A stretch of 64,000 bases of DNA from Bacteroidales bacterium (lineage in GTDB: Bacteria; Bacteroidota; Bacteroidia; Bacteroidales; Paludibacteraceae): assembly GCA_015061185.1 (NCBI GenBank), contig SUWZ01000011.1:3328-67327 (forward strand), written 5' to 3'. Position numbers and translations under genes: made by a program. The notes below the pieces were generated by a model that was not told the origin of the DNA, did not search any database, and was given only the letters and a program-made list of their open reading frames with translations. Positions 1 through 46,654 of this stretch are shown here, piece after piece; positions within the stretch are counted from its first letter, which is position 1, and the number at the start of each line of letters is the position of its first letter.

Positions 1-1211
1 TAGTAAAATCATTTGGCCCTGTTAAGGAACTAGATATTGTATTTAAGTCAATTACAATATTAATTGGCGACCAAGGCACAGGCAAAAGCTGTATTGCCAA
101 ACTTTTTTCAATGTTTAAATGGCTGGAAAAAGAATTGGTTATGCAACGTCAAAAGAGTTCTTATTATGAATCATACAATAAGTTCTCTTCGATGCTGTGC
201 AAATACCACAGATTAGAATCTTTTATCAAAGAAGATACATATATCAAATACGAGGGTGAGAAGTATTCTTTTGAATACGACAATTCAAGATTTCATATTT
301 TTGACAATGGTGGAGACATTCTGTTGTTACCTAAAATAATTTATATCCCGGCAGAAAGGGCTATTTTAAGCGTAGCCGAGAATAAATCACGCCTGCTAAA
401 AGAATTGCCGGCTTCATGCGACACGTTTCAAGACGTATTCAGCGATGCTAAAAAGAATTTCAAGCGTGGATACAACTTGCCTTTCGGTGAGTTGCATTAT
501 GAATATGACTCTCTGAATGACACAAGTAGAATTTCAGGGAAAGGTTACGAAGAGAGTCCGGTAAAATTAACCCATGCATCCAGTGGCATTCAATCGGCAC
601 TTCCTTTATGTCTTGTTTCTGAATATTTAAGTAGAAAGATATTGGAGAAAGAAGAAACAAAACTTTCAAAAGAGGAAAAGAGCAAGATGGAAAAGCAAAT
701 TTCCGAAATTATGGATAATGATGCATATACAGAGAGCGTAAAAGAAATTATGCTCAAAAAGATATCGTCTTTAAATAGGTATGGTTGCTTTGTCAATATT
801 ACAGAAGAGCCGGAGTTGAACCTGTTTCCAAAATCACAAATGGGAGTTATCCAATCGTTAGTTAAAAACAACAATAGCTCACAAGGGAATAAACTGGTTA
901 TTACCACCCACAGTCCGTACACCTTAGCAATACTTAACTTATTAATTATAGCAGCTAAGACATATGACAAAGGTGACGAAGAAACAAAAAAAGAGGTTGA
1001 ATCAATACTCCCTGTCCAATACCATATTGGCAAGGATCATTTGGCTGCATATAGTTTGAATGAAGGAGACGATGAAACTCCATATTGCAAGTCTATTATC
1101 AGCGAAAATACTGGCATGATTGCCAAAAATGATTTAGACTCAATATCAGAGACCATTTCAATGGAGTTTAATAAATTGTACAGACTTTATGCCAAATCAA
1201 ACAAACAATAA
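1..1211 (+). CDS. ABC/AAA_21-type ATPase, 5'-truncated by the window edge
   Basis: The reading frame is open from nt 3, upstream of the listed ATG at 111. Walker A GDQGTGKS is encoded at about nt 66-89. Other motifs: signature-like ASSGIQS, Walker B-like ITEEPELNLFP, H-loop-like VITTHSPY. Confidence 0.75.
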   Translation, partial: VKSFGPVKELDIVFKSITILIGDQGTGKSCIAKLFSMFKWLEKELVMQRQKSSYYESYNKFSSMLCKYHRLESFIKEDTYIKYEGEKYSFEYDNSRFHIFDNGGDILLLPKIIYIPAERAILSVAENKSRLLKELPASCDTFQDVFSDAKKNFKRGYNLPFGELHYEYDSLNDTSRISGKGYEESPVKLTHASSGIQSALPLCLVSEYLSRKILEKEETKLSKEEKSKMEKQISEIMDNDAYTESVKEIMLKKISSLNRYGCFVNITEEPELNLFPKSQMGVIQSLVKNNNSSQGNKLVITTHSPYTLAILNLLIIAAKTYDKGDEETKKEVESILPVQYHIGKDHLAAYSLNEGDDETPYCKSIISENTGMIAKNDLDSISETISMEFNKLYRLYAKSNKQ

Positions 1212-1794
1212 CATACCCATAGAAGTGAAAAGACTTCGGCTGTGTTCTTCGCTTCAAGATTGTGGCGGAACTGTTGAGGCTTGTCTAAAAGAATCTGATG
1301 CGAAGTCTATGTCTATATATGACAATGAGGCTTTAGGCTACACCGACTGGAAGGGTGGCGACTCCGGTTTACCCGACACATTCATTGCAAACAATTCTGA
1401 CAACAAGAAGCTGATTCTATTGCCACTTGACAATAGAATCATATCAGGCCCGAAGGTAAAGCATGGAGGTGTAGCAGACTGTGCAGTCCTAACAATGGAT
1501 AATCTGAGCTTCATTGAGTTCAAAACTAATGTCAGAAGCAACACAGACCGGAACATCAGCGAAAAAACTGAAGATGCCATTAACCAATTGTGGCATACAT
1601 ACAATGAGATAATTTCTCCTAGATGCTCTGCCAAAGGAATAGATATAGCCAAAATGGTCGACATTGAGTTTTGCATCGTATTCAATAAGGAGTTAGATGT
1701 AACATCGGCTTCTGCATCGAGGCTTAACTATCAAATGGAATTTATGAATGACCATCATTTCCCGTTATATTTTGATAACGAAAAGAATTTTTAA
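1189..1794 (+). CDS. Hypothetical protein with a PD-(D/E)xK-like nuclease motif
   Basis: 201-aa ORF overlapping the ATPase stop by 23 nt. The segment GGVADCAVLTMDNLSFIEFKTN fits a D-x(n)-E-x-K restriction-endonuclease-fold core. I recognise no other family. The start codon is uncertain. Confidence 0.5.
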   Translation: MPNQTNNNIPIEVKRLRLCSSLQDCGGTVEACLKESDAKSMSIYDNEALGYTDWKGGDSGLPDTFIANNSDNKKLILLPLDNRIISGPKVKHGGVADCAVLTMDNLSFIEFKTNVRSNTDRNISEKTEDAINQLWHTYNEIISPRCSAKGIDIAKMVDIEFCIVFNKELDVTSASASRLNYQMEFMNDHHFPLYFDNEKNF

Positions 1795-1898
1795 CTTTAT
1801 CTATTTATAATATGGATGCCGATGGTAATTCTATAGATAAAGCTCGATTACTTCAGGGTAGCACAAAGTTTCGTGATCAAGTATTTAATGGCGAATAA

Positions 1899-2064
1899 AC
1901 CGGTTTTTATCCGACAACAAAAAGTTGGTTTATAAGCAAAGACATCGGCATGTACAACACCTGCAGTCACTTTTGCGTCTATTGCTACGCCAACAACAAG
2001 CAAAGAACTTGTGATAAAGAACAGGGCAAAGCTTTCTGATGATAGCGAAAGTATAATTGGGTAG
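1899..2064 (+). pseudogene. Relic of the C-terminus of a DUF1848-like (Cys-rich) protein
   Basis: Translation gives ...DIGMYNTCSHFCVYCYANNKQ..., which resembles the conserved DUF1848 C-terminal C-x3-C-x2-CYAN motif. It has no upstream body, in-frame stops precede it, and there is an apparent frameshift near 2037. Confidence 0.35.
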
Positions 2065-2290
2065 CATTAAACAAGACTGTCATGAACTCATCCAACAAAA
2101 AAAGTTCTTCTTCCAAATTCACTTTTATCATTGGGAAAACAATACATCTGCCGGTAAGGTACACAAATACAGTATAAAAAAGGGAAATACCCAAAATAAC
2201 CAAAGTAAATATAATCATTTAACTCACATATACTATAATGCAAAAGGATCGTTTATTTTGAAACAAATTGTTCAACAATATTACCTAAAA

Positions 2291-2420
2291 AGGTTATAAA
2301 CAACAATTATAACCAAAAATAGTTATAATTTCCCATTATAACCAAAATAGGTTATAAATATAGATTATAACTAAAAAAGGTTATAATCAAACATTATAAA
2401 TAAAAATAGTTAAAAAGTAA
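2291..2420. repeat. Array A: 4 full plus 1 degenerate 29-bp units, each GTTATAA-N7-TTATAAC
   Basis: GTTATAA occurs at 2293, 2322, 2351 and 2380, with a degenerate copy at 2409. TTATAAC occurs at 2307, 2336 and 2365, with a degenerate copy at 2394. The period is exactly 29 bp. Confidence 0.9.
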
Positions 2421-2531
2421 GAGGAGAGTTGTTGTTTTACTACGTTTAGCAAGCAAAATCAATATAAGGTTACGTAAAATAGATTATACATAACTCTCTA
2501 AATAGCAAATACATACAAAGTTAAAAGTTGA

Positions 2532-3227
2532 TTATGAAGCGCAAACCATCAGACCGCAAAGTAAGGCAATTCCAAAACTTAAAAATGTACCGGCAAGAAC
2601 ATATTCCGTTTTTGCAGTATCAGTATCTTTAAATCTTAAGATTGACTTAGCAGCAATAACAAACCCGATAGCTTCAAACTGACCAATAATTACAAAAATC
2701 ATGGTAAGCAATCGTTCCAAATTACCAATTAATCCACCTGCGTTCTTTATGTTACTACATGATTTTGACTCTCCAACATCATATTTTTTGAGTAACAATT
2801 TAATGAAAATATTGGTAGGTTTTATACAAATAAGAGTTGCTATTAGTAAAATAGGGATAGAAAAATTTTCACATTGGTCTATTAGATGTATAGGTAATTC
2901 AATTTGAGTCTCATATACAATAGAGATGAGAAGTAATATGCCTAAATGAAGTAGTTGATCTGCTAAAAAAACACCTAAACTATTGCGAAAATATAGTTTT
3001 ATAGAATCAATTATAAGATGAGTTAGAATTATTAAAATAGCATAAATTCCAAAATCAATAGATGGTATCAATAACCAGGCTATTAATCCCATAATAATAG
3101 AATGCACATAGAGAAACCAACATTTTATTTTTTTTGTCTCTTTTTGTTTGCAAAAGTAGTCGGTTTGTAAGTAGAAATCTCCAATAATATGTGTTAAAAG
3201 CAAACTAGACAGTAAATCGTTATTCAT
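2532..3227 (-). CDS. DUF3307 (SatC-like) multi-pass membrane protein
   Basis: N-terminal HIIGDFYLQT motif typical of DUF3307. Multiple hydrophobic helices. It lies 4 nt downstream of the satD-like gene. Confidence 0.8.
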   Translation of the reverse strand: MNNDLLSSLLLTHIIGDFYLQTDYFCKQKETKKIKCWFLYVHSIIMGLIAWLLIPSIDFGIYAILIILTHLIIDSIKLYFRNSLGVFLADQLLHLGILLLISIVYETQIELPIHLIDQCENFSIPILLIATLICIKPTNIFIKLLLKKYDVGESKSCSNIKNAGGLIGNLERLLTMIFVIIGQFEAIGFVIAAKSILRFKDTDTAKTEYVLAGTFLSFGIALLCGLMVCAS

Positions 3228-3231
3228 TAAA

Positions 3232-3879
3232 TTAAAATTTTATCCTTTCAAAATAGTTTAAAGCCTCTTCAATACAATACCACTGCGCTGAAGTAGTATG
3301 TTTGTTGACCCCAGCTTGTGAAATTTTCATCTCCTTGGCTATTTCACACTCTTTTTTAGATAGTAGTTTGTAAAATATAACTTCACTTTGCCTTTTTGTA
3401 GCATTGTTCATTATAGCATCGGTCAAAATAGCAATTGTATGCAAGGAGGAGCGATAAAAGGTGTTATTAATATTTATTTTTAATGTCCCCTTTTTGGGTG
3501 TTCTCATCTTCTCAACACTCCGCCCGGATAAGTAAATGGCTTCACCATCCATTATATTAGCCACTTTATCTATAATTCTCATTTCGCCGATACCAATTGC
3601 AATCCGAATACCATAGGTTTGAAATTTTTTATTTTCTAATGATCTATTCAATTGGGTAGATTTTATAAATGCTTTAATTATTAAAGCAATACGAAATGAA
3701 TCTACGGCATTAGGGATTGTACACTCAATATAATCTCCTTTTATTTGTCTCCCCCAAAAGCCTGGATATTTCGTCTCCAATAATTGAAACAATTCATCTA
3801 TTTTTCGTTTCAATTCAATTGTTCCCTCTTTTGAAATTGAGGTTGATGATATAATATCAGCTGAAATCGTTGCTTGCAT
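3232..3879 (-). CDS. SatD-family protein: nucleotidyl-cyclase-like N-domain plus C-terminal sigma70-r4/LuxR-like HTH
   Basis: ISADIISST, KGDYIECT and IRIAIGIGEM resemble class III cyclase/GGDEF palm motifs. The C-terminal ECEIAKEMKISQAGVNKH is HTH-like. SatD is typically paired with DUF3307. Confidence 0.75.
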   Translation of the reverse strand: MQATISADIISSTSISKEGTIELKRKIDELFQLLETKYPGFWGRQIKGDYIECTIPNAVDSFRIALIIKAFIKSTQLNRSLENKKFQTYGIRIAIGIGEMRIIDKVANIMDGEAIYLSGRSVEKMRTPKKGTLKININNTFYRSSLHTIAILTDAIMNNATKRQSEVIFYKLLSKKECEIAKEMKISQAGVNKHTTSAQWYCIEEALNYFERIKF

Positions 3880-3899
3880 CGTTTTTATTCTTTCAACTA

Positions 3900-3907
3900 C
3901 AAATATA
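3900..3907 (-). promoter_or_regulatory. Bacteroidota -7 box (TATATTTG) for satD
   Basis: The plus strand reads CAAATATA 21 nt upstream of the satD ATG. Confidence 0.4.
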
Positions 3908-4056
3908 GTATATTTATTCTTTCTTTTTGAAGTTGCGATTGATTTTTTTTTCTTATTTAGTCACAACAAATTCTATTTACAAATTGAGTAACTAAAACCA
4001 CTCTTGAGCAAATATATAAAATAAGTTAGCTCTTTTCGTATTTCTAATAATTACCT

Positions 4057-4190
4057 TAAATGGTTATAATTGCCATTTATAACCATATATAGTTATAATT
4101 ACTTATTATAACCAAAATCAGTTATAATTATATATTATAACCTTAAATAGTTATAATCGCCATTTATAACCTTTTTCAGTTAATAAAAGT
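4057..4190. repeat. Array B: 4 full plus 1 degenerate 29-bp units, same design and orientation as array A
   Basis: GTTATAA occurs at 4063, 4092, 4121 and 4150, with a degenerate copy at 4179. TTATAAC occurs at 4077, 4106, 4135 and 4164. Confidence 0.9.
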
Positions 4191-4284
4191 TTCATAATAA
4201 TGAGTTCTCTAAAAATTATCTCTTGCATATCTTGAGAATTTTTACGAATATTGTAGGTTAAAAAAAATTAATTGAGAGATTGAT

Positions 4285-5574
4285 ATGAAATTATTTTTAA
4301 AAGGGGGAATATTTTGTATTTGTTCCTTATTGGTTAGTTCCTTAGGAGCGCAAACAACCAAAGAGGAAATGATGTTACACATCAACCAAACAGCAAGTAA
4401 CTACCGTGCTTATTCAACCGATTTTAAACCACAATCGAAAGTACCTAAGGGGTATCAGGCTTTCTACGTTAGTCACTACGGAAGACATGGGTCTCGCTAC
4501 CATTATTCGGCTACTGATTTTAAAAATATGTTGGAGATTTTGCAAAAAGCAGATTCTGCCAATGCTTTGACGGAGTTGGGAGTCAGTGTTAAAAATCGCT
4601 TTGCTAGAATCTATGAAGATGGCAAAATGAAGGCTGGAGATCTTACTCAGAAAGGGGTTGAGCAACATAAAGGCATTGCTCGTCGAATGGTGGAAAATTG
4701 TCCTAAAGTATTTAAAGGGGAGGCAAAAATCAGTGCTAAATCTTCCACATCCGTACGCTGTGTGCTGAGCATGAATGCTTTTTGTCAGGAGTTGAAAACT
4801 ATTAATCCGAAGCTTCAAATCACAAACGAAGCAAGTAAGCGTCTGATGTCCTACATCTGCTATGAAGAGAAAGAGGATCAAAACAAAAGAATGAACGATA
4901 CCTTATGGACTAAACCTTTTGGAGAATTGCATTATCGGTTAATTCATCCTTCAAGAATGATGAACGTTTTATTTAAAGACAAAGAGTATTTGGATAAAAA
5001 TATAGACTCTGTTGCCTTTATGCGCAAATTATATGATATTCACTCCAGTATGCAAGGAATGGATAGTTTAAATATCGATTTTAGTGATGTTTGGACAAAA
5101 GAGGAATTATACAACAATTGGCGAGTGCAAAATGCTTGGTGGTACGCCAATAGTGGTCCTTGTCCGCTTACTTTGTCTAAAAATCCATTGTTAGCTCGAA
5201 ACCTACTAAAGAATATTTTGGACGAAGCCAAAAAAGCTGTCGATGGGAAAGGGGATAACGCCACTCTTCGATTTGGACACGACATGGGTATTCTTCCTTT
5301 GGCTTCGCTGATGGGAATGCAAGGTTGTGATGTTAAAACTACTGATCTTGAAAATTTACATACTGTTTGGACTGATTTTAGAATCATTCCAATGGGAGCT
5401 AATATTCAATTGATTTTCTATCGTCATAAAAAGAGTAAAAATGTTTTAGTCAAGGCTCTACTAAACGAAAATGAGGTGACTTTACCTTTGAAAAGTGATA
5501 TTGCACCTTATTATAATTGGGAAGATTTTTACCAATATTATTCAGCTTTACTAAAAGAGATAGCTATAAAGTAA
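4285..5574 (+). CDS. Secreted histidine acid phosphatase (branch 2 histidine phosphatase)
   Basis: Signal peptide. RHGSRY catalytic motif. Downstream GHDMG (HD) motif. Confidence 0.8.
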   Translation: MKLFLKGGIFCICSLLVSSLGAQTTKEEMMLHINQTASNYRAYSTDFKPQSKVPKGYQAFYVSHYGRHGSRYHYSATDFKNMLEILQKADSANALTELGVSVKNRFARIYEDGKMKAGDLTQKGVEQHKGIARRMVENCPKVFKGEAKISAKSSTSVRCVLSMNAFCQELKTINPKLQITNEASKRLMSYICYEEKEDQNKRMNDTLWTKPFGELHYRLIHPSRMMNVLFKDKEYLDKNIDSVAFMRKLYDIHSSMQGMDSLNIDFSDVWTKEELYNNWRVQNAWWYANSGPCPLTLSKNPLLARNLLKNILDEAKKAVDGKGDNATLRFGHDMGILPLASLMGMQGCDVKTTDLENLHTVWTDFRIIPMGANIQLIFYRHKKSKNVLVKALLNENEVTLPLKSDIAPYYNWEDFYQYYSALLKEIAIK

Positions 5575-5641
5575 TTTACCAATTTTATAATTACAATTGA
5601 ATTTCATGATTCATAGAGGGTACTCTTACACTAAAATTTAC

Positions 5642-5649
5642 TACCTTTG
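5642..5649 (+). promoter_or_regulatory. -7 box TACCTTTG upstream of gldF
   Basis: Matches TAnnTTTG 37 nt before the ATG at 5686. Confidence 0.4.
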
Positions 5650-5685
5650 AGGTCGATTTTGAATCAATCTTTACATGTGTGAGTT

Positions 5686-6414
5686 ATGTTTACATTGTTG
5701 AAAAAAGAATTTAATAATTTTTTTGCTTCCCCCATGGGATATATCGTGGTGGGTGTATTTTTAGTGGTGACAGCTCTCTTTTTATGGGTTTTTCCGGGAG
5801 AATACAATATTTTGGATTCCGGCTATGCAAATATAGACGGACTTTTCTATTTTGCACCTTGGCTATATCTCTTCTTAGTGCCGGCTGTTACCATGAGACT
5901 ATTTGCAGAAGAGAAGAAAACCGGCACCATTGAGTTACTAATGACTCGCCCAATTTCTTCTTGGAGTATCGTATTATCTAAATATTTGGCCGGAGTATTA
6001 TTAGTGCTCTGTTCACTTTTCCCTACATTAATCTATTTTGCATCTGTTTGGTGCTTGGGAGATCCTATGGGAAATATCGATACAGGAGGAACTTGGGGTT
6101 CCTATATCGGTTTATTTTTCTTGGCTATTATCTATGTGGCCATCGGCATTTTTGCCTCTTCGTTGACAGATAATCAAATTATCTCTTTTATTGTGGCTGC
6201 TCTTTTGTGTTTCTTCTTTTATGCCGGTTTCGATATTATTTCCGGTATGGCTAATAGCGGAAACACAGAGACTTTTATCTCTTCATTGGGTATCAATGCT
6301 CACTATGAATCAATGAGCAGAGGAGTTATCGATAGTAGAGATATTGTCTACTACTTAGTGGTGGTTGCTATCTTTATTTTCTTAACTCAAACTGTTATTG
6401 ACAGAAAAAAATAA
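5686..6414 (+). CDS. gldF: Gliding-motility ABC transporter permease GldF
   Basis: About 240 aa ABC-2 permease. The conserved stretch PAVTMRLFAEEKKTGTIELLMTRPIS is typical of GldF. Confidence 0.8.
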   Translation: MFTLLKKEFNNFFASPMGYIVVGVFLVVTALFLWVFPGEYNILDSGYANIDGLFYFAPWLYLFLVPAVTMRLFAEEKKTGTIELLMTRPISSWSIVLSKYLAGVLLVLCSLFPTLIYFASVWCLGDPMGNIDTGGTWGSYIGLFFLAIIYVAIGIFASSLTDNQIISFIVAALLCFFFYAGFDIISGMANSGNTETFISSLGINAHYESMSRGVIDSRDIVYYLVVVAIFIFLTQTVIDRKK

Positions 6415-6415
6415 G

Positions 6416-7042
6416 ATGCTATTTTATAACAAAAAATTGATTAATGGTTGTTCACTCGCTATTTGGAAAATTGATGAGTCTGTGGAGCAACTTTTGTCTC
6501 ATTTTTCTACTTATAAAGAGGCTATAACAACACAGATAGCCTCTATGAAAAGTGAAAAACGACAAAAAGAATTTCTTTCTGTCAGAATATTGATTTCTAA
6601 ACTATTAGGAAGTGAGAATAATGTTGTATATAATAATAACGGTCGCCCTTCGCTGTTAAATCGAGAAGAGAAAATAAGTATAAGTCATACACAAGGTTAT
6701 GCCTCTGTTATTATTCATCCCAATCGGACTGTTGGGGTGGATATAGAGCAGTGCAGAGAGAAGATTTTTAGAGTTAAACACAAATTTTTGTCGGCTTATG
6801 AATTGGCTCATGTAGATCTTCAAAATGAACTCAAATACCTAACGTTATTGTGGTCTGCCAAAGAGACTCTTTATAAACTCTCAGAGAATCATTTAGTTGA
6901 ATTTGATGAAGATATGGAGATAGAACCTTTAACACTCTCTTCTTGTGGTCTGCTATACATCACCGATAAAAAAGTTGGAAAAAGATATGAACTTTCGTAT
7001 CAATTTTTTGATGATTTTGTTATTGTTTATGGAGCTGAGTGA
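6416..7042 (+). CDS. 4'-phosphopantetheinyl transferase (Sfp type)
   Basis: GRPSL, ISISHT, GVDIE and WSAKETLYK motifs. The listed start at 6398 is TTG, and the ATG at 6416 lies just after the gldF stop. Confidence 0.8.
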   Translation: MLFYNKKLINGCSLAIWKIDESVEQLLSHFSTYKEAITTQIASMKSEKRQKEFLSVRILISKLLGSENNVVYNNNGRPSLLNREEKISISHTQGYASVIIHPNRTVGVDIEQCREKIFRVKHKFLSAYELAHVDLQNELKYLTLLWSAKETLYKLSENHLVEFDEDMEIEPLTLSSCGLLYITDKKVGKRYELSYQFFDDFVIVYGAE

Positions 7043-7054
7043 AAATATTAGTTT

Positions 7055-8248
7055 ATGAGACATTGCTACCTATTTAATCCTGAAAATGATTTGGCCTTAG
7101 CGAGCAATTCTTCGCATTACCATACTCCTAAAAAGATATTGGAATTTTCTTCCGATCTTTCTTTGTTACCCGTTTGGTACGCTCCTAATAATAGTTTAAT
7201 ACTAACTCGAACTGATGTTGACTCCCAATGGTATCAAGAACTCTTCTCTCAATTGGGGATTCAGCAAAAATGGCTCGCCTTGGAACGTTATTCCTATCAA
7301 TCGAATGACCAGCTTTCTCCATGGGGCTGGAATTCCACTCTTCTTGCGTGGTGGAAAAAGCTGAATCCATCTTTTTCGATTTGTTTGGAGCAAATGAAAA
7401 ATTGGTCCTCAAGGGAAGTTACAATTAATTTGCTTTCCTACCTCAAACAACAAAATCTTCTTGAATCATCGGTATATATTCCACAAAAACTTAACAGCTA
7501 TTCTGATATACTGAGATTTCAAACAGAACATCCATCGTTTATATTGAAATCTCCTTGGTCAGGAAGTGGGAAAGGACTCTTTTGGAGTAATGGATTATGG
7601 AGAGATAAATTAAAAGAATGGAGTAACAATATCTTAACTACTCAAGGTTTTGTAATAGGAGAGTTGGCGTATGAAAAAATGCATGATTTCGCCATGGAGT
7701 TCCATTGTCAAGACGGCAATGTATCTTTTATTGGATACTCTCATTTTTTGACAGATAAATTCGGTCATTACAAATACAATATTATGGCATCTGATAAGGA
7801 GATAGAATCTTTCTTACTACATAAACTTTACCATCCGGAAAGATTGTTGCGAACAAAAGAGAAAATTATTTTGTTTTTGAAAGAAAATTTAGCACAATTT
7901 TACAATGGATATTTGGGAATTGATATGATGTTATATGGCTCAAAATCAACAAATTGTTTTCTTCATCCTTGCGTTGAAATCAATTTAAGAATGAATATGG
8001 GAATTGTTTCACAAATGATTCACAAACGTTATTTTCCGGAAGAAACAAAAGGGATATACAACGTAAAAACATTTTCTTCTCCTAAAGACTTAGTTGATTA
8101 TGACCTCTTTATGCGAAAGAAATTTCCTTTAAAGATCGAGTCAAAGAAAATTATGAATGGCTATTTGGCTCTGACACAGATAGCTCCCAATTCTCGCTCT
8201 CTTGCTTATTTACAAAGTGGAATAGAAGAGGAGGTCTCCCATGTTTGA
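7055..8248 (+). CDS. Hypothetical protein, probable ATP-grasp fold
   Basis: ILKSPWSGSGKGLFW is a Lys plus Gly-rich loop. LGIDMML...VEINLRMNMG is an E-x-N Mg site typical of ATP-grasp enzymes. Confidence 0.55.
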   Translation: MRHCYLFNPENDLALASNSSHYHTPKKILEFSSDLSLLPVWYAPNNSLILTRTDVDSQWYQELFSQLGIQQKWLALERYSYQSNDQLSPWGWNSTLLAWWKKLNPSFSICLEQMKNWSSREVTINLLSYLKQQNLLESSVYIPQKLNSYSDILRFQTEHPSFILKSPWSGSGKGLFWSNGLWRDKLKEWSNNILTTQGFVIGELAYEKMHDFAMEFHCQDGNVSFIGYSHFLTDKFGHYKYNIMASDKEIESFLLHKLYHPERLLRTKEKIILFLKENLAQFYNGYLGIDMMLYGSKSTNCFLHPCVEINLRMNMGIVSQMIHKRYFPEETKGIYNVKTFSSPKDLVDYDLFMRKKFPLKIESKKIMNGYLALTQIAPNSRSLAYLQSGIEEEVSHV

Positions 8249-32123: not shown

Positions 32124-32540
32124 CTGAGAATTCAATATTTTCAAATAATTTTATCATTCTACAGAATATACAAAATATATGAACCATTAGATTATTGGAG
32201 CGTTTGTATGGTTTGTATGAATTCTCGAACGCTGAGATTTCAATATTTTTCAGAGAGCCGTAAACTTCTACAGAATATTCAAAATAAATGAACCATTAGA
32301 ATATTGGAGCGTTTGTATGGTTTGTATGAATTCTCGAACACTGAGATTTCAATATTTTTTAGAGAACTGTACATTATACAAAATTATCAAAATATCAGAA
32401 ACACTAAACGACTAAACAAATTTAGAAATTCCGAACGCTGAGATTTCAATATTTTTTAGAGAACTGTACATTATACAAAATTATCAAAATATCAGAAACA
32501 TTAGACGATTAGACAGGTTGTGAGAATTCTGAAAATTCAG
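32124..32540 (+). repeat. Nested tandem repeat, about 4.5 units of 97-109 bp
   Basis: Units start with ctgaga(a/t)ttcaatatttt at 32124, 32232, 32341 and 32438. Units 1 and 2 share one variable half, and units 3 and 4 share another. Confidence 0.85.
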
Positions 32541-37619: not shown

Positions 37620-37720
37620 ATCCAAACAAATAATTTGCCGATTTTCAGAAAAATCCAAACAAATATTTTGCCAATTTTCGGAAAAATCCAAAGAAATAAA
37701 TTTTGACACTCCCCGAAAAA
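37620..37720. repeat. Three direct repeats with a 33-bp period upstream of the ATPase promoter
   Basis: atccaaacaaataatttgccgattttcagaaaa / atccaaacaaatattttgccaattttcggaaaa / atccaaagaaataaattttgacactccccgaaaaa. Confidence 0.8.
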
Positions 37721-37784
37721 AAATAGTTCGCCGAGCCTATAAAGTCCCGACGAACTGTATATTTGGCAACAGCAGACAGCCCCC

Positions 37785-40817: not shown

Positions 40818-40824
40818 ATTCAAT

Positions 40825-41540
40825 TATGAATGATGAATTAGGAGTTAGGAATTAAGTGATTCCCGAGTTGTTTTTGTTATGCTACTTAAAAGCTTTTTTA
40901 ATTCTTCACAATCACTATTTATGGAATATTACTCTCTGCCATAATGATTATTTTTGCAAAGATAGGATAATTCCTAATCCCTCACTCCTAATTCCTAATT
41001 ATTTATGAATGATGAATTAGGAGTTAGGAATTAAGTGATTCCCGAGTTGTTTTTGTTATGCTACTTAAAAGCTTTTTTAATTCTTCACAATCACTATTTA
41101 TGGAATATTACTCTCTGCCATAATGATTATTTTTGCAAAGATAGGATAATTCCTAATCCCTCACTCCTAATTCCTAATTATTTATGAATGATGAATTAGG
41201 AGTTAGGAATTAAGTGATTCCTGAGTTGTTTTTGTTATGCTACTTAATAGCTTTTTTAATTCTTCACAATCACTATTTATGGAATATTACTCTCTGCCAT
41301 AATGATTATTTTTGCGAAGATAGGATAATTCCTAATCCCTCACTCCTAATTCCTAATTATTTATGAATGATGAATTAGGAGTTAGGAATTAAGTGATTCC
41401 CGAGTTGTTTTTGTTATGCTACTTAATAGTTTTTTTAATTCTTCACAATCACTATTTATGGAATATTACTCTCTGCCATAATGATTATTTTTGCGAAGAT
41501 AGGATAATTCCTAATCCCTCACTCCTAATTCCTAATTATT
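40825..41540. repeat. Four tandem 179-bp units, each an internally deleted copy of the four-helix-bundle gene cassette
   Basis: Units begin at 40825, 41004, 41183 and 41362. A fifth unit at 41541 runs into the intact gene. Each unit joins the gene's 3' end, its 5' end and promoter, and the heptamer blocks. Confidence 0.95.
40957..40964 (-). promoter_or_regulatory. -7 box TATCTTTG inside repeat unit 1, pointing toward res
   Basis: Same box as the four-helix-bundle gene promoter. Also intact in unit 2 (41136-41143). Units 3 and 4 read TATCTTCG. Confidence 0.4.
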
Positions 41541-41560
41541 TATGAATGATGAATTAGGAG

Positions 41561-41923
41561 TTAGGAATTAAGTGATTCCTGAGTTGTTTTTGTTATGCTA
41601 CTTAATAGCTTTTTTAATTCTTCACAATCACTATTTATGGAATTATACTCCTTTTCGTTAATGTATTCGGTTGCAAGTAATAAATCCAACCAATACTTAC
41701 TCTCTGCAGCTTCTTTATAAGCAATATACATTTTGGCAAGAAAATCCTTTTTGCTGATTCCGCACAATGCTTCATTTACGTTTGCTCCAATACTTGTTCC
41801 CGAACGAAGAAGTTGTTTAGATAATACAAACTCCCTTTTCTCTTCACTAAGATATTGGTATAACCGAACAATGCGTATAGCAAAATCTCTACTCTTATCC
41901 TTAATAATGTTATTCTCTGCCAT
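41561..41923 (-). CDS. Four-helix-bundle protein (23S rRNA intervening-sequence protein / Avd-like family)
   Basis: 120 aa. FAIRIVRLYQYL...QLLRSGTSIGANVNEA...SKKDF..K..IA.KEA.ES.YWL is the hallmark pattern of this family. Confidence 0.85.
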   Translation of the reverse strand: MAENNIIKDKSRDFAIRIVRLYQYLSEEKREFVLSKQLLRSGTSIGANVNEALCGISKKDFLAKMYIAYKEAAESKYWLDLLLATEYINEKEYNSINSDCEELKKLLSSITKTTQESLNS

Positions 41924-41981: not shown

Positions 41982-43904
41982 TTATATTACTCTACACGTA
42001 GTTTCCGGTGAATAATGCTTAAAAATCTGCTCGAAGTTGTCTATCACATTATCATTGACTGCCGAGGCGTCACGCATGACAAAATAGACCGGCTTCCGCT
42101 TGGCAATCTCCGTAATGGTTTTCTCATCAACATCTTTATCGAAAACAGCCATAAGATAACCATCATCCACATTAAATACCGTAATATCATTCCTAATTCC
42201 TAACTCCTCATTTCTAATTGAAACAGAGAGTTCTATTCCGAGGTCGAGCATCACTTGAAAGAGCAAATCCTCATTGGTGCGGTCTGACTTTACATTTTCA
42301 TTGAAGAGCGAACTCATGCTAAACTCTTGTGGCGTGTAATAAACATCTTCCATATTAGAGGAGTCGAGCTTCAATACTCGGAAACCGATATCCAATTTGG
42401 AATTAGGAGTTGGGAGTGAGGAATTGTTTTCATTCTTCTTTCCTAATTCCTCATTAATTTTCTTTCCTGCACGACGGATACGCTCCTTGCCTATCTCACA
42501 GATATTCTTGTAACCGGCTTTGTAGGCTTCGCTCTTCTCTTCAGTCTTTTCTGGCAACTGCACCATAATGAATTTACGATTACCGCCATCTTCGGCATTT
42601 AGTTTCATTACGGCGTGGGCGGTAGTAGCGGAACCCGAGAAGAAGTCGAGAATGATGTCGTTACAATTAGTATATAAAGCAAGACATCTTTGAATTAAAT
42701 CAACGGGTTTAGGGTATTCAAAATACGATTTACCACCAAATAGTAACTTAAGTGCCTGCGATGCTTGTTGTGAATGACCGACTTCTTCGTGTTTCCAAAT
42801 AGACATAGGTGTAACACCTTGTTTTACCTCAGACAAGAATCGTTTAAGTCTTGGAACATTATCACCATTTGCACCAAACCAAATGCGATTATCGGCAATC
42901 ATTTCTTGGAATCGTTCTTTTGTATATAACCAACATCTACCACTTGGAGGTAGTATAACTCGACCGCTTGGAAGAGTTAGTGGATAAACTTTTGAATTAA
43001 CAACAGGACCAACCGTAGTATTATCACTCTGCCAAGGTCCTCGTTGGTCATTGTCAGGATTTGAGTATCGAGATGTATTTTCTTCTGTTCTCGGCAAACC
43101 ATTGCAAACGGTTATATCTATATTTTTTCCATATGCCAAAATATAGTCGTGACTATACGAAAAATGTTTCTTAAGACTAATTGGAGCAAAAGACCTCTCC
43201 CATACTACTTGTGCCAAAAAATTATGCTCACCAAATATCTCGTCTGTAATGTTTTTTAGATTTTTACCCTCATTATCATCAATTGAAATAAAAATAACCC
43301 CATCCTCTGTAAGCAAATCTCTCGCCACCTTCAAACGAGGATAAATCATATTGAGCCAATTGGTATGGAAACGACCGTTGCTTTCGGTATTTCTTGTATA
43401 TACTTTTTCATCCATAATAATATTACCTTCTTCATCTCTAAAAGAAGAACGATCAGCATCATTAGCCGCATTTTCAGCAAAATCATCATTATACACGAAG
43501 TCGTTTCCCGTATTATAAGGTGGGTCGATGTAAATCATCTTCACCTTGCTCAAATAGGTTTCACGCAATACTTTGAGTACATCAAGGTTGTCTCCCTCTA
43601 TGTAAAGATTTTGTGTATTGTCGAAATCCACACTCTCCTCACGGCAAGGGCGGAGTGTCATAGTTGTAGGAGTGTTAGCCAAGCGGACAGATGCGCGCTT
43701 GTCTGGCCAAGTGAACTGATAACGTTCCTCTCCCTCTGCAATGATTTCGTTGGATAACTCTGCTTGCAGTTTCTCAAAGTCGATAGCCAGTTCCGGCTTA
43801 CCATCCTTGCCCAAACGTTCCGTCACGCAATTAGGAAACAGCCGGGCAATCTTCTGTGTGTTAGAGCCTATCACATCGTGGCTCTGCATTTTCAGCCTCT
43901 CCAT
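41982..43904 (-). CDS. mod: Type III R-M DNA methyltransferase subunit Mod (beta-class N6-adenine)
   Basis: IYIDPPYNTGNDF (motif IV) precedes ILDFFSGSATTAHA (motif I). The conserved C-terminus is FRVLKLDSSN...DLLFQVMLDLG. Confidence 0.9.
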   Translation of the reverse strand: MERLKMQSHDVIGSNTQKIARLFPNCVTERLGKDGKPELAIDFEKLQAELSNEIIAEGEERYQFTWPDKRASVRLANTPTTMTLRPCREESVDFDNTQNLYIEGDNLDVLKVLRETYLSKVKMIYIDPPYNTGNDFVYNDDFAENAANDADRSSFRDEEGNIIMDEKVYTRNTESNGRFHTNWLNMIYPRLKVARDLLTEDGVIFISIDDNEGKNLKNITDEIFGEHNFLAQVVWERSFAPISLKKHFSYSHDYILAYGKNIDITVCNGLPRTEENTSRYSNPDNDQRGPWQSDNTTVGPVVNSKVYPLTLPSGRVILPPSGRCWLYTKERFQEMIADNRIWFGANGDNVPRLKRFLSEVKQGVTPMSIWKHEEVGHSQQASQALKLLFGGKSYFEYPKPVDLIQRCLALYTNCNDIILDFFSGSATTAHAVMKLNAEDGGNRKFIMVQLPEKTEEKSEAYKAGYKNICEIGKERIRRAGKKINEELGKKNENNSSLPTPNSKLDIGFRVLKLDSSNMEDVYYTPQEFSMSSLFNENVKSDRTNEDLLFQVMLDLGIELSVSIRNEELGIRNDITVFNVDDGYLMAVFDKDVDEKTITEIAKRKPVYFVMRDASAVNDNVIDNFEQIFKHYSPETTCRVI

Positions 43905-44601: not shown

Positions 44602-44777
44602 GGTGTGTATTTCAGATATTTCAAAACACTAAAAAGATATGTTTTCCAATGTTTCTTATTGTCAATTTGGTGCGTTTTCCGATATTTACAAACTCAGAAA
44701 GGTGCGTTTTCCGATAATTTAAAGTATAATAAAGGTGCGTTTTCCAATATTTACAAACCAAAAAAGGTGCGTTTTCC
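44602..44777. repeat. Downstream array: about 6 GGTGCGTTTTCC-type repeats with a 32-33-bp period
   Basis: Cores at 44669, 44701, 44734 and 44766. Degenerate copies at 44602 and about 44636. Confidence 0.85.
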
Positions 44778-44835: not shown

Positions 44836-46194
44836 TTAGTCCAAAAATTGCGTTATAACATTAGACTCGTTCTGAAAGAACATTACATAATAGATTGGAA
44901 TATAAGTAATTCCTTTCTTTGTATAAACCTTCTGCTCATTAGATAGCACATAGGCTCTTTTTACGTTGTACTCGTCGTTTGTCAGAAACTTATTCAATGC
45001 ACTGTGGACGGTATAATCCTTTCCGGACTTCACCTCTATCGGGATATTTGACAAATTATCCACATCATCAATCAGATAGTCCACCTCTCCGTTTTTCTTG
45101 TTGTCGTAATAGTACAAATTATATCCGTGCGCCTTCAACTCTTGCGCCACCACTGTTTCATAAACCGAGCCGAGGTTTATGCTTCTTTCATCAGACATTA
45201 TTGCAGATATGTTGTTGCGGTAGAACAAGCCCGACAAAATACCCACATCGTTTAGATAGAGCTTCAGCAAATTCTTTCCGCAGTTTTCGGACAACGGATA
45301 GGTTGGAGTGCTGATAGCCTTCACGTCCAAAGTTACGCCAGCTGAAATTAGATAATCAAACTCGTCCAGATAGTCGTCACTTCTCTTCCAGCCTTTGTCT
45401 TCAATATCCTTCACCACAACTCTCTTCTTCTTATTTTCAAGGTTGGACGGAATCATATCAAAAACACGGCGAATCTTCAATCGCTTATTATGCTGCTCTT
45501 CATACTTTGACGCATCCACAGCGTATAAATTGTGGGTCTCTTTCTGCACCGACCTGAAACGTTCTACATTTCGGCTCTCGACGAAAATCTCCACCGCTCT
45601 CGGCAATCCGCCTACCAGAAGATACTTCTTAAAGAGGTCCATTATTTTGCTGTGCATCGCATCTGGCAGGGCCTGGCTGTTTTCAAAACACTCCCTCATC
45701 TCCCCAACCGCAACTTCACCCACTCCGTTAGCATACAAAAACTCCTCAAAGTCCAAAGGGTACATGTGCACCACCTCCAGACTGCCTATCGGCAAAGACT
45801 GTATTTGCTTTAGTGTCACGCCAAGCAAAGAGCCGCTGGCTATATAGGTAAACCTGCCCTCCTTCATCAAAAACTTCACAAGGGTGAGAAGATGGTCGTA
45901 AGCCTGTATCTCGTCAATAAAGACAAGCGTATTGGACTTATCCTTCAACTTGTTGCCTGCCACAACGCTGAGAGCCATGTAAAAATCTTTTGTGGTCTTG
46001 GCCTCCGCAAAGATTCTGTCGCCCAACTTATCCTCCTCCATATTGATTTCCACATAATTGGAGAACATACGTCGCCCAACCCATCGAATTATATAGGACT
46101 TTCCTATTTGTCGGGCACCATCAACCAACATCATTCTGTCTGAATTTGATGTCAGATACTCCTCTATCCTTTTGGTTATCTTTCTATACAACAT
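44836..46194 (-). CDS. AAA+ ATPase with a C-terminal DUF4143 (PD-(D/E)xK-like) domain, paralogue of 36202-37578
   Basis: Walker A GARQIGKSY, Walker B LVFIDEIQ, and C-terminal GEVDYLI...IPIEVKSG. Confidence 0.85.
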   Translation of the reverse strand: MLYRKITKRIEEYLTSNSDRMMLVDGARQIGKSYIIRWVGRRMFSNYVEINMEEDKLGDRIFAEAKTTKDFYMALSVVAGNKLKDKSNTLVFIDEIQAYDHLLTLVKFLMKEGRFTYIASGSLLGVTLKQIQSLPIGSLEVVHMYPLDFEEFLYANGVGEVAVGEMRECFENSQALPDAMHSKIMDLFKKYLLVGGLPRAVEIFVESRNVERFRSVQKETHNLYAVDASKYEEQHNKRLKIRRVFDMIPSNLENKKKRVVVKDIEDKGWKRSDDYLDEFDYLISAGVTLDVKAISTPTYPLSENCGKNLLKLYLNDVGILSGLFYRNNISAIMSDERSINLGSVYETVVAQELKAHGYNLYYYDNKKNGEVDYLIDDVDNLSNIPIEVKSGKDYTVHSALNKFLTNDEYNVKRAYVLSNEQKVYTKKGITYIPIYYVMFFQNESNVITQFLD

Positions 46195-46224: not shown

Positions 46225-46242
46225 ATATATTTTTTTGTAAAA

Positions 46243-46581
46243 GGTGCGTTTTCCCATATTTTTTACTATTAATTTGGTGCATTTTCCTATAATTTTAAAA
46301 CCTTTAAAGGTGCGTTTTCATATATTTTTCACTATTAATTTGGTGCGTTTTCATATAATTTCAAAACCTAAAGGTGCGTTTTCCTATATTTTCAACTATT
46401 AATTTGGTGCATTTTCATATAATTTTAAAACCTTTAAAGGTGCGTTTTCATATATTTTTCACTATTAATTTGGTGCGTTTTCATATAATTTCAAAACCTA
46501 AAAGGTGCGTTTTCCTATATTTTCAACTATTAATTTGGTGCATTTTCCTATAATTTTAAAACCTTTAAAGGTGCGTTTTCC
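46243..46581. repeat. Upstream array: 11 GGTGC(G/A)TTTTC(C/A) repeats with a 31-33-bp period
   Basis: Cores at 46243, 46276, 46309, 46342, 46373, 46406, 46439, 46472, 46504, 46537 and 46570. Two unit types alternate, and there is a higher-order repeat of about 131 bp. Confidence 0.95.
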
Positions 46582-46654
46582 GATTTTACCTCTTACATCT
46601 TGTAACTTCTAACTTAAAATATTTTATTATATTTGCAGATAAAATAAAAATAAA

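Follow-up and report, generated by a model that had tools for sequence, protein, structure and literature searches.

The stretch of DNA analysed here, called the window below, comprises 64,000 nucleotides of a Bacteroidales bacterium of the Paludibacteraceae (GenBank assembly GCA_015061185.1, contig SUWZ01000011.1, positions 3,328 to 67,327). It carries a two-gene operon on the minus strand, encoding a SatD-like regulator of 215 amino acids (3232..3879) and a polytopic membrane protein of 231 amino acids of the DUF3307 family (2532..3227; Pfam PF11750, 7.6e-22), whose start lies 4 nt past the stop codon of the SatD-like gene. Two arrays of palindromes, to which no strand is assigned, bracket this cassette. 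Given the minus-strand orientation of the operon, array B (4048..4185) precedes the SatD-like gene, whose ATG at 3879 is 184 bp away, and array A (2278..2415) follows the DUF3307 gene. Our main finding, which rests on sequence comparisons, is that both arrays are probably cognate operators of the SatD-family regulator encoded between them; array B is orthologous to the upstream arrays of five closely related genomes, and array A is its paralogue.

A search for the unit GTTATAA-N7-TTATAAC located it at 2293, 2322, 2351 and 2380 in array A, and at 4063, 4092, 4121 and 4150 in array B. All four units of array B (4063-4170) are perfect; array A (2293-2400) has three perfect units and a near-perfect one, that at 2380, which ends in TTATAAA and has one mismatch. 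The step between units is exactly 29 bp in each array, and the two arrays are offset by 1770 bp with the same polarity. At one mismatch or less, the motif has eight matches in the 64 kb, all of them in the two arrays (four in each), where 0.03 matches are expected in the shuffled window and none of 100 shuffles attains eight. Independently, Tandem Repeats Finder returned a period of 29 at both arrays, with 4.8 and 4.2 copies. A degenerate half-unit terminates each array, GTTAAAA at 2409 in array A and GTTAATA at 4179 in array B. An earlier annotation made from the letters alone, referred to here as the sequence-only reading, had described four palindromes per array at a 29-bp step, in direct orientation and about 1.77 kb apart, plus the degenerate terminal half-units, and all of this was borne out.

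That reading had also taken the 21-bp N7 inverted repeat as the protein footprint. The N7 units are real, but because half-site orientation alternates along each array in steps of 14/15 bp, a second register is palindromic to the same degree: perfect TTATAAC-N8-GTTATAA units occur at 2307, 2336 and 2365 in array A and at 4077, 4106 and 4135 in array B, and these perfect units are bordered by units with two mismatches at 2278 and 2394, and at 4048 and 4164, respectively. Homologous loci favour this 22-bp N8 register (7+8+7+7 = 29) as the dimer site. The two arrays can be aligned unit by unit, in an alignment that takes in the degenerate unit (GGTAATTATTAG / GGTAATATTGTTG) and extends into the flank for about 15 nt. 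They differ at 1 of 56 half-site positions and at 24 of 52 spacer positions (46%), for an overall identity of about 77%. Such a unit-wise alignment, with divergence concentrated in the spacers, shows that the arrays are segmental duplicates of which the half-sites alone were kept.

The first product of the operon has no Pfam match above threshold, and none to the SatD model PF16264 at E<=10. That model is matched, however, by 5 of 20 members of its branch (best E 2.1e-5), and alignment of the window branch with classical SatD by hhalign gives a probability of 99.85% (E 5.9e-31) over 206 columns. Judged by these profiles, the window protein is a divergent SatD, homologous though outside the curated Pfam model; the label satD of the sequence-only reading thus stands as distant homology and not as a direct family match. 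In the AlphaFold2 model (mean predicted local distance difference test score, pLDDT, 83; built on 23 homologues), residues 1 to about 140 form a palm domain resembling those of GGDEF proteins and class III cyclases, and the C-terminal part is a helical helix-turn-helix (HTH). The best Foldseek matches in the PDB are PleD, DosC, Ma1120, Rv1264 and sGC (probability 1.0; target-normalised template modelling scores 0.45-0.6), and by its modelled fold the protein belongs to the class III nucleotidyl cyclase/GGDEF palm superfamily. Family alignments show that D8, D49 and R120 are invariant, within the motifs SADIxSST, KGDY and SGR; we read these residues as the putative metal-binding Asp pair and transition-state Arg of class III cyclases. 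Membership in DUF2652, a single-domain cyclase-like family (PMC4886424), was considered and rejected, as this is a different family to which the protein has no Pfam match.

A C-terminal HTH in the first product had been proposed from the sequence, and both the AlphaFold2 model and matches in relatives agree with it. The domain is of the sigma-70 region 4 / LuxR-GerE type: 13 of 20 members match Sigma70_r4_2 or GerE (best E 4e-6), the match being weak in the window protein itself (GerE E 0.036; TIGR02985 E 0.011), and a PDB sequence search with the cassette protein gave marginal LuxR HTH matches only. The recognition helix is SQAGVNKHTTSA, at approximately residues 187-198. Close relatives are annotated at NCBI as "RNA polymerase subunit sigma-70", a label that is untenable because region 2 is absent; a bona fide sigma factor was rejected since only the region-4-like segment matches and the N-terminal 140 residues are a cyclase-like palm. 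As for the DUF3307 protein, its AlphaFold2 model is unusable (pLDDT 46). Neither cassette protein has a match in PADLOC.

To place the arrays in a broader context, we compared the window with fetched loci (designated by L-numbers), among them 80 genome loci with relatives at 39-96% identity. DUF3307 lies directly 3' of the SatD gene in 78 of these 80, and is the only conserved neighbour. Autocorrelation of the sequence upstream of this gene is strongest at a lag of 29 bp in 72 of 79 loci. The unit is palindromic throughout, TTATnnn-N8-nnnATAA followed by 7 bp, and its inner bases differ by lineage (TTATAAG, TTATAGA, ATATAGG, TTATCGG, TTATTAG, TTATGTG, TTATCTA, ATATACC and TTATAAC). Three units are typical, placed at positions -137, -108 and -79 as counted from the ATG; counted from the proximal site, operator scores peak solely at 0, -29 and -58. 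Arrays comprise between 2 and about 12 copies, with outer units that often have one good arm only; large arrays are found at L032:3607-3942 (11.7 units), L082:738-933 (about 7) and L092:2256-2460 (ANME-2; about 6). With a strict detector, 54 phased chains were found in 31 kb upstream of SatD genes, versus one in 578 kb elsewhere in the loci. This sole exception is the downstream array of L001, a Paludibacteraceae metagenome-assembled genome from yak caecum. Indeed, the bracketing of the cassette by twin arrays, as described in the sequence-only reading, is present in all six genomes of the close lineage (the window, L001 and L106-L109), and in none of the 78 other Bacteroidota loci, which have a single upstream array. 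SatD-like genes at 56-60% identity also occur on 13 IMG/VR contigs classed as viral (L093-L105), 7 of which have phased palindromes by the strict detector.

The association extends beyond Bacteroidales. An independent metagenome scan, for which the query was two exact consecutive units, returned nine contigs. SatD and/or DUF3307 adjoin the array in seven of them, with proteins 23-40% identical to those of the window; an eighth, L083, has open reading frames (ORFs) with SatD and DUF3307 motifs that tblastn missed, and L087 breaks off 75 bp beyond its array. The window and L086 are identical, L085 falls in the window's branch, and the proteins of L081-L084, L088 and L089 contain the classical SatD motif AVITGD...FRGDSFQ. 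The array is upstream of satD in L084, L085 and L088, and between satD and DUF3307 in L081, L082, L083 and L089. In the classical loci L090 (Ca. Brocadia), L091 (Methanoperedens), L092 (ANME-2) and L110-L113, SatD and DUF3307 are paired throughout, and each locus has two to six palindromes in 29-bp steps, mostly TTATAAG/CTTATAA (TTATAAC in L113), upstream of satD and/or in the short satD-DUF3307 spacer. A two-unit array fills this spacer in L090 (3150-3290), L091, L092 and L110-L112, and in these same loci the start codon of DUF3307 falls within its right arm, CTTATAATG. The ffh (SRP54) gene is a neighbour in L084, L088 and L111, as in the sat operon of Streptococcus mutans. Two arrays per module are common across the family, though their positions differ, and a profile search gave 1304 SatD/DUF3307 clusters at 50% identity in bacteria and archaea. 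Because classical bacterial and archaeal loci share it, we regard 29-bp phasing as a family hallmark in two domains of life. A search for arrays next to satD homologues elsewhere, which the sequence-only reading had called for, has thereby turned up the association in about 100 loci, archaea included.

The half-sites change together with the protein. The recognition helix varies mainly at residue 193, which is Lys in the window protein. Within the window's clade, Lys193 goes with C at base 7 of the half-site (TTATAAC, ATATACC, TTATAGC) in 6 of 6 loci, four with C in both arms and two with arms A/C; Gln193 goes with G in 40 of 42 loci, and Asn or Ser with G or A. An NNAST helix accompanies TTATAGA, a QST..INQHS helix accompanies TTATCGG, and further helix variants track TTATGTG. 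In the classical clade, only 27% identical, xKR helices are found with TTATAAC in seven loci out of seven, and xQR or xSR helices with TTATAAG-type sites in six. The recurrence of the rule of Lys to C (G on the opposite strand) in both clades, deeply separated as they are, speaks for direct readout by SatD. Beyond the lineage, its closest relatives (72% identity) combine TTATAAG sites with S or N at residue 193; the window lineage therefore appears to have switched specificity and rebuilt its operators, and the duplication of the array probably belongs to this rewiring.

Comparison within the lineage gives a third line of evidence. Between the window and L001, which differ at 0.19-0.26 of four-fold sites in flanking genes, 6 of 112 half-site positions (5%) have changed in the two arrays, versus 29 of 104 spacer positions (28%; p=5.7e-6). 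Each array is significant alone, array A with changes at 2/56 and 15/52 positions, respectively (p=3.5e-4). The four contigs L106-L109 encode an identical protein and keep both arrays, with changes confined to the spacers. From these substitution patterns, purifying selection is directed at the half-sites only, and because these are kept in all six genomes, array A would be a maintained predicted binding site, not a decaying relic. The surrounding sequence is a mosaic between the window and L001: DUF3307 has one difference among 78 four-fold sites (0.013), identity is about 98% over the segment 1924-2270, and the SatD gene and the other neighbours show the 0.19-0.26 given above. Array A and its spacer, about 25% diverged, thus sit between two near-identical tracts. 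Two tracts of recombination could account for this mosaic (1924-3300), as could a fast-evolving array region.

As for promoters, scanning for sigma-70-type promoters and for terminators gave no terminators, and a number of promoter-like sites below that of shuffles; such a scan is uninformative for Bacteroidetes, and we therefore read -33 TTTG and -7 TAnnTTTG elements by eye and with a regular expression. In 42 of the loci, the right arm of the proximal palindrome abuts the -33 TTTG and its centre is 35.5-39.5 nt upstream of the -7 box TAnnTTTG; in Flavobacteriia-type loci the centre is 16.5 nt upstream of the -7 box, and in Dysgonomonadaceae-type loci the palindrome merges with it. The window has a -7 box, TATATTTG, at 3900..3907 on the minus strand (P2), 20 nt before the ATG and orthologous to the canonical promoter of related loci. 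The P2 block is 100% conserved with L001 and resembles canonical promoters, and P2 is likely to be the promoter of the operon. A second -7-like box of the same sequence, TATATTTG, at 4009..4016 on the minus strand (P1), is separated by 42.5 nt from the centre of array B's degenerate operator on the promoter-proximal side. P1 is possibly an array-linked promoter, with a leader of about 125 nt, but its function is uncertain because L001 has a degenerate version of the box (TATATTTC).

A promoter-like box, TCCTTTTG(CATT), is also found past array A, at 2241..2248 on the minus strand, 40.5 nt from the centre of the last operator. It reads TCCTTTTGCATT from 2248 to 2241, is similar to canonical SatD promoters (TACCTTTGCATT), and is kept in six of the six lineage genomes, L107 and L109 having a 2-nt insertion (TCTATTTTG), but conservation does not extend to the sequence past the box. 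A 77-amino-acid ORF with an N-terminal hydrophobic helix (1985-2218, minus strand) starts 22 nt past this box, at canonical spacing. We rejected it as a SatD-regulated gene: it is frameshifted in L001, has lost its ATG in L107 and L109 and forms a singleton cluster, and it is probably not a gene. A remnant of a second SatD/DUF3307 copy past array A was likewise rejected, as neither blastx nor tblastx revealed similarity, and no known RNA families or tRNAs were found in 1500-4500 and 1-8000.

The operator interpretation draws on three observations, namely the association with the locus, the covariation of residue and base in two clades, and selection restricted to half-sites. Together, these comparisons strongly support the suggestion of the sequence-only reading that the arrays are sites for the HTH protein encoded between them. 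As in autoregulatory arrays, the palindromes lie by the regulator's own promoter, are specific to its gene, and have changed in correlation with the recognition helix. The binding unit would be a 22-bp palindrome, TTATAAC-N8-GTTATAA in the window lineage, repeated every 29 bp, to which SatD dimers would bind cooperatively through the C-terminal HTH. The outer TTAT would be common to the family and the inner three bases read in a lineage-specific manner, residue 193 (Lys) specifying base 7. A step of 29 bp amounts to 2.76 helical turns, and four units to 11.0 turns, which points to a defined higher-order cooperative nucleoprotein complex rather than to independent sites. Successive dimers would then spiral round the helix in a fixed geometry. 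Palm domains dimerise in cyclases and GGDEF proteins, and palm-palm contacts may set the geometry here, with the cyclase-like palm serving as a sensing or enzymatic input.

Across the family, the array would abut or overlap the satD-DUF3307 promoter, with a second array over the DUF3307 start in classical loci. Most likely, SatD autorepresses and holds the DUF3307 membrane protein at a low level; we infer the negative sign from the operators' overlap with the core promoter in certain lineages and, in classical loci, with the start codon of DUF3307. For Streptococcus pyogenes, satD is reported to be essential by transposon sequencing (Tn-seq) and yet accessory, being absent from 29% of genomes (PMC11323703), which is in our view the behaviour expected of the repressor of a harmful partner. 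In the window lineage, the array and the adjacent promoter-like segment were duplicated, leaving array B about 110 bp upstream of the ancestral promoter and array A past the operon. Given that both arrays are still selected as sites, array A is probably an auxiliary operator. It may act by looping with array B, as the sequence-only reading had suggested, as a roadblock or insulator against readthrough, or by titrating the repressor.

Several observations weigh against this interpretation. The covariation counts are phylogenetically non-independent, with an estimated 4-8 or so independent switches, and Arg193 follows no simple rule, as it pairs with G in three loci but, in L085, with C. At P2 there is no operator in the canonical array position, array B being displaced by about 110 bp from this conserved promoter, and P1 is not conserved in L001. 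No conserved gene lies downstream of array A. Finally, most Bacteroidales have three operators wholly upstream of the core promoter (at about -48, -77 and -106), an arrangement that suits an activator too, and a predicted fourth operator over the -7 box scores barely above background (5.5 versus 4.4, of 14). This fourth operator was rejected as the mechanism of repression, its signal being marginal.

The sign of regulation could thus be the opposite, with SatD a class I/II-like activator whose array recruits RNA polymerase to a weak promoter in positive autoregulation. We consider this unlikely, although it is the alternative that fares best. The proximal operator ending at the -33 TTTG in 42 loci, the three operators upstream of the core promoter and the lack of a strong operator over the -7 box are all as an activator would have them, and the sigma-70 region 4 / LuxR class of HTH is rich in activators. 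However, the Flavobacteriia-type operator 16.5 nt from the -7 box and the Dysgonomonadaceae-type operator merged with it are ill placed for activation, as are the operators of classical loci that lie inside the operon, over the DUF3307 start codon. Moreover, the position of operator relative to promoter varies across the family, and an essential yet accessory satD fits repression better.

Another possibility is that the twin arrays are the recombination ends of a mobile or excisable cassette, to which protein binding would be incidental, either through recombination between direct repeats or through Campbell-type integration of a circular array-satD-DUF3307 molecule into a resident array. The arrays are direct repeats and segmental duplicates that flank exactly two genes; the cassette is found in variable genomic contexts, and the module is present on the 13 IMG/VR contigs. 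Furthermore, the cassette lies between direct repeats, made of local and non-conserved sequence, in 7 of 68 loci, compared to 1 of 254 geometry-matched controls (p=1e-4). Examples are 81 bp at L012:3668 and 5603 (a partial copy of an extracytoplasmic function (ECF) sigma gene), 66 bp at L025:3654 and 5542, 56 bp at L020:3780 and 5670, 24 bp at L027:3781 and 5358, 21 bp at L022:3766 and 5391, and 17 bp at L039:3843 and 5409. In the window lineage the flanking repeat is the operator array itself, as Campbell-type integration of a circular cassette would give.

The flank beyond about 1924 is also polymorphic in the lineage. Homology to L001 stops at this point, and the window has there two ORFs on the plus strand, 111-1211 and 1189-1794, which match the A and B components of the PADLOC candidate defence system PDC-M29 (6e-93 and 7e-6). 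PDC-M29 is present in the window, L106 and L108, and an intact DUF1848 gene in L001, L107 and L109, an alternation that indicates an insertion polymorphism right beside array A. Farther along, L001 has AbiEii/AbiEi-like ORFs. On the other side, the sequence-only reading had raised co-regulation of the cassette with a phosphatase gene past array B; this gains no support from synteny, as the phosphatase is a neighbour in this lineage only.

Against mobility by means of the arrays, neither the cassette nor its immediate surroundings encode an integrase, transposase or recombinase, and conserved ends, the other mark of a mobile element, were not found either: the flanking repeats of other loci have no common sequence. 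In the 78 other genome loci the single array is inside the cassette, by the promoter. The two copies are only about 77% identical with spacers 46% different, and orthologous arrays are closer than paralogous ones, so that no recent exchange has taken place between them. Conservation of half-sites only is a signature of protein recognition, unlike a crossover site, and the filled state is found in all six lineage genomes. The suggestion that the arrays function as the ends of a mobile cassette is therefore not supported; as an account of the arrays it is improbable, and a recombinational origin of the array duplication is possible.

Far less probable still is that the arrays act as RNA, their palindromes being conserved as runs of hairpins in a leader, a small RNA or a processing signal. 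Each unit can fold into a stem of 7-8 bp with a loop of 7-8 nt; array B would be transcribed if P1 were unused and transcription started farther upstream, and array A is in the operon's 3' region. The stems are nevertheless AT-only and weak, and the covariation is with a protein residue. We reject this reading because canonical arrays are upstream of the -33/-7 elements, hence untranscribed, because of 245 mismatched arm pairs only 33 could form G-U pairs when read on the sense strand, and 17 on the antisense strand, with 195 non-pairing, which leaves no wobble signature, and because no Rfam match was found at E<=1, nor any terminator-like site. Least credible of all is a generic repeat, such as a repetitive extragenic palindrome or bacterial interspersed mosaic element, a miniature inverted-repeat transposable element, a CRISPR-like mini-array or iterons, or else a nucleoid-protein target, without link to SatD: the motif is AT-rich, palindromic and tandem, and the window has further tandem arrays, but it occurs at two sites only in 64 kb, at least 7 of the 9 metagenome-scan contigs have SatD/DUF3307 adjoining, its sequence shifts between lineages in step with the SatD recognition helix, and no cas or rep genes accompany the 7-8-bp spacers, which are far below CRISPR length. 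A CRISPR array proper was rejected on similar grounds (period of 29 bp in total, variable parts of 7-8 bp, no cas genes nearby).

Operator arrays of autoregulating HTH proteins are already known, and one close likeness is with the OL and OR clusters of phage lambda around cI-rexA-rexB. In both cases two tandem clusters of palindromic operators, 2.4 kb apart in lambda and 1.77 kb in the window, flank an operon for an HTH repressor and a membrane protein (RexB, and DUF3307 in the window). In lambda, cooperative dimer-dimer binding in the clusters and long-range looping tighten autoregulation (Dodd et al. 2001, 2004). Lambda differs by its 17-bp operators in steps of about 23-24 bp, as opposed to 29 bp, and by its divergent lytic promoters; array A controls no recognisable gene. 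Looping is established in lambda and only a possibility in the window. CI also has its own type of oligomerisation domain where SatD has a cyclase-like domain, and the twin layout of the window is lineage-specific.

The ParR-parC (R1/pSK41), omega heptad and type II toxin-antitoxin arrays are alike in having identical short sites, at a fixed and non-integral spacing, by the regulator's own promoter. Such arrays give cooperative superhelical nucleoprotein complexes and autorepression. They involve ribbon-helix-helix dimers on 7-20-bp direct repeats, with ParA/ParM or toxins, whereas the window has a predicted HTH on 22-bp palindromes and no partition gene, and toxicity of DUF3307 is hypothetical. 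In Pycsar (PycC-PycTM) and in CBASS with transmembrane effectors, a gene for a class-III-cyclase/GGDEF-like palm protein similarly stands beside that of a polytopic membrane protein. However, the DUF3307 protein of the window has no recognisable nucleotide-binding domain and no PADLOC match, and these systems lack an HTH fusion with dedicated operator arrays, where SatD is predicted to combine palm and HTH. Defence or toxin-antitoxin genes do neighbour the module in several loci: PDC-M29 in the window, AbiE in L001, and PIN-antitoxin pairs in L090 and L092. Finally, the S. mutans sat operon encodes homologous proteins in the same gene pairing, SatD and SatE (PF16264 and PF11750; the hhalign comparison above), from which the window protein differs in falling below the Pfam SatD threshold, as a member of a divergent Bacteroidales branch.

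Other repeats are present in the window. A second pair of twin arrays, at 44619-44777 and 46240-46630, consists of 32-33-bp repeats containing GGTGCGTTTTC, in about 4 and 10 copies, respectively. Between them is an ORF of 452 amino acids (44836-46194, minus strand), read from its sequence as an AAA ATPase of the AAA_14/DUF4143 type. A 179-bp tandem repeat at 40824-41650 (4.6 copies, 98% identity) has internal 7-bp TAATTCC/TTAGGAA runs, and lies just downstream of a 640-amino-acid ORF (41982-43904, minus strand) whose sequence reads as a DNA methyltransferase. Further tandem repeats are at 37620-37721 (33-bp unit, 3 copies) and 32156-32394 (109-bp unit, 2.2 copies).

In full-text literature searches, we found no description of a DNA target, operator array or fold of SatD, nor of the 29-bp periodicity; what the papers so covered say of SatD/DUF3307 comes down to an association with acid tolerance in S. 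mutans and to Tn-seq essentiality in S. pyogenes (PMC11323703). What is new is thus a regulator family combining a cyclase-like palm with an HTH, its 29-bp phasing in bacteria and archaea, its specificity code, and a lineage-specific duplication that brackets the operon. It is conceivable, but doubtful at present, that the array is more than a set of operators, namely a DNA scaffold that aligns SatD dimers so that their palm domains pair across units, occupancy being coupled to the making or sensing of a nucleotide signal that governs DUF3307. If true, SatD-DUF3307 would be an ancient, self-contained addiction- or defence-like module common to bacteria and archaea, made of a DNA-tethered cyclase-repressor and a harmful membrane effector, and the 29-bp phasing would be a geometric need of its assembly.

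SatD and DUF3307 form a widespread pair, for which our analysis proposes the role of a sequence-specific DNA-binding regulator with a cyclase-like input. The pair gains a predicted operator, a specificity rule of one residue for one base and an invariant 29-bp architecture, and the family is a potential source of orthogonal repressor-operator pairs for Bacteroides genetics. A non-integral phasing that is conserved across domains of life is an unusual constraint, and points to a defined higher-order nucleoprotein complex.

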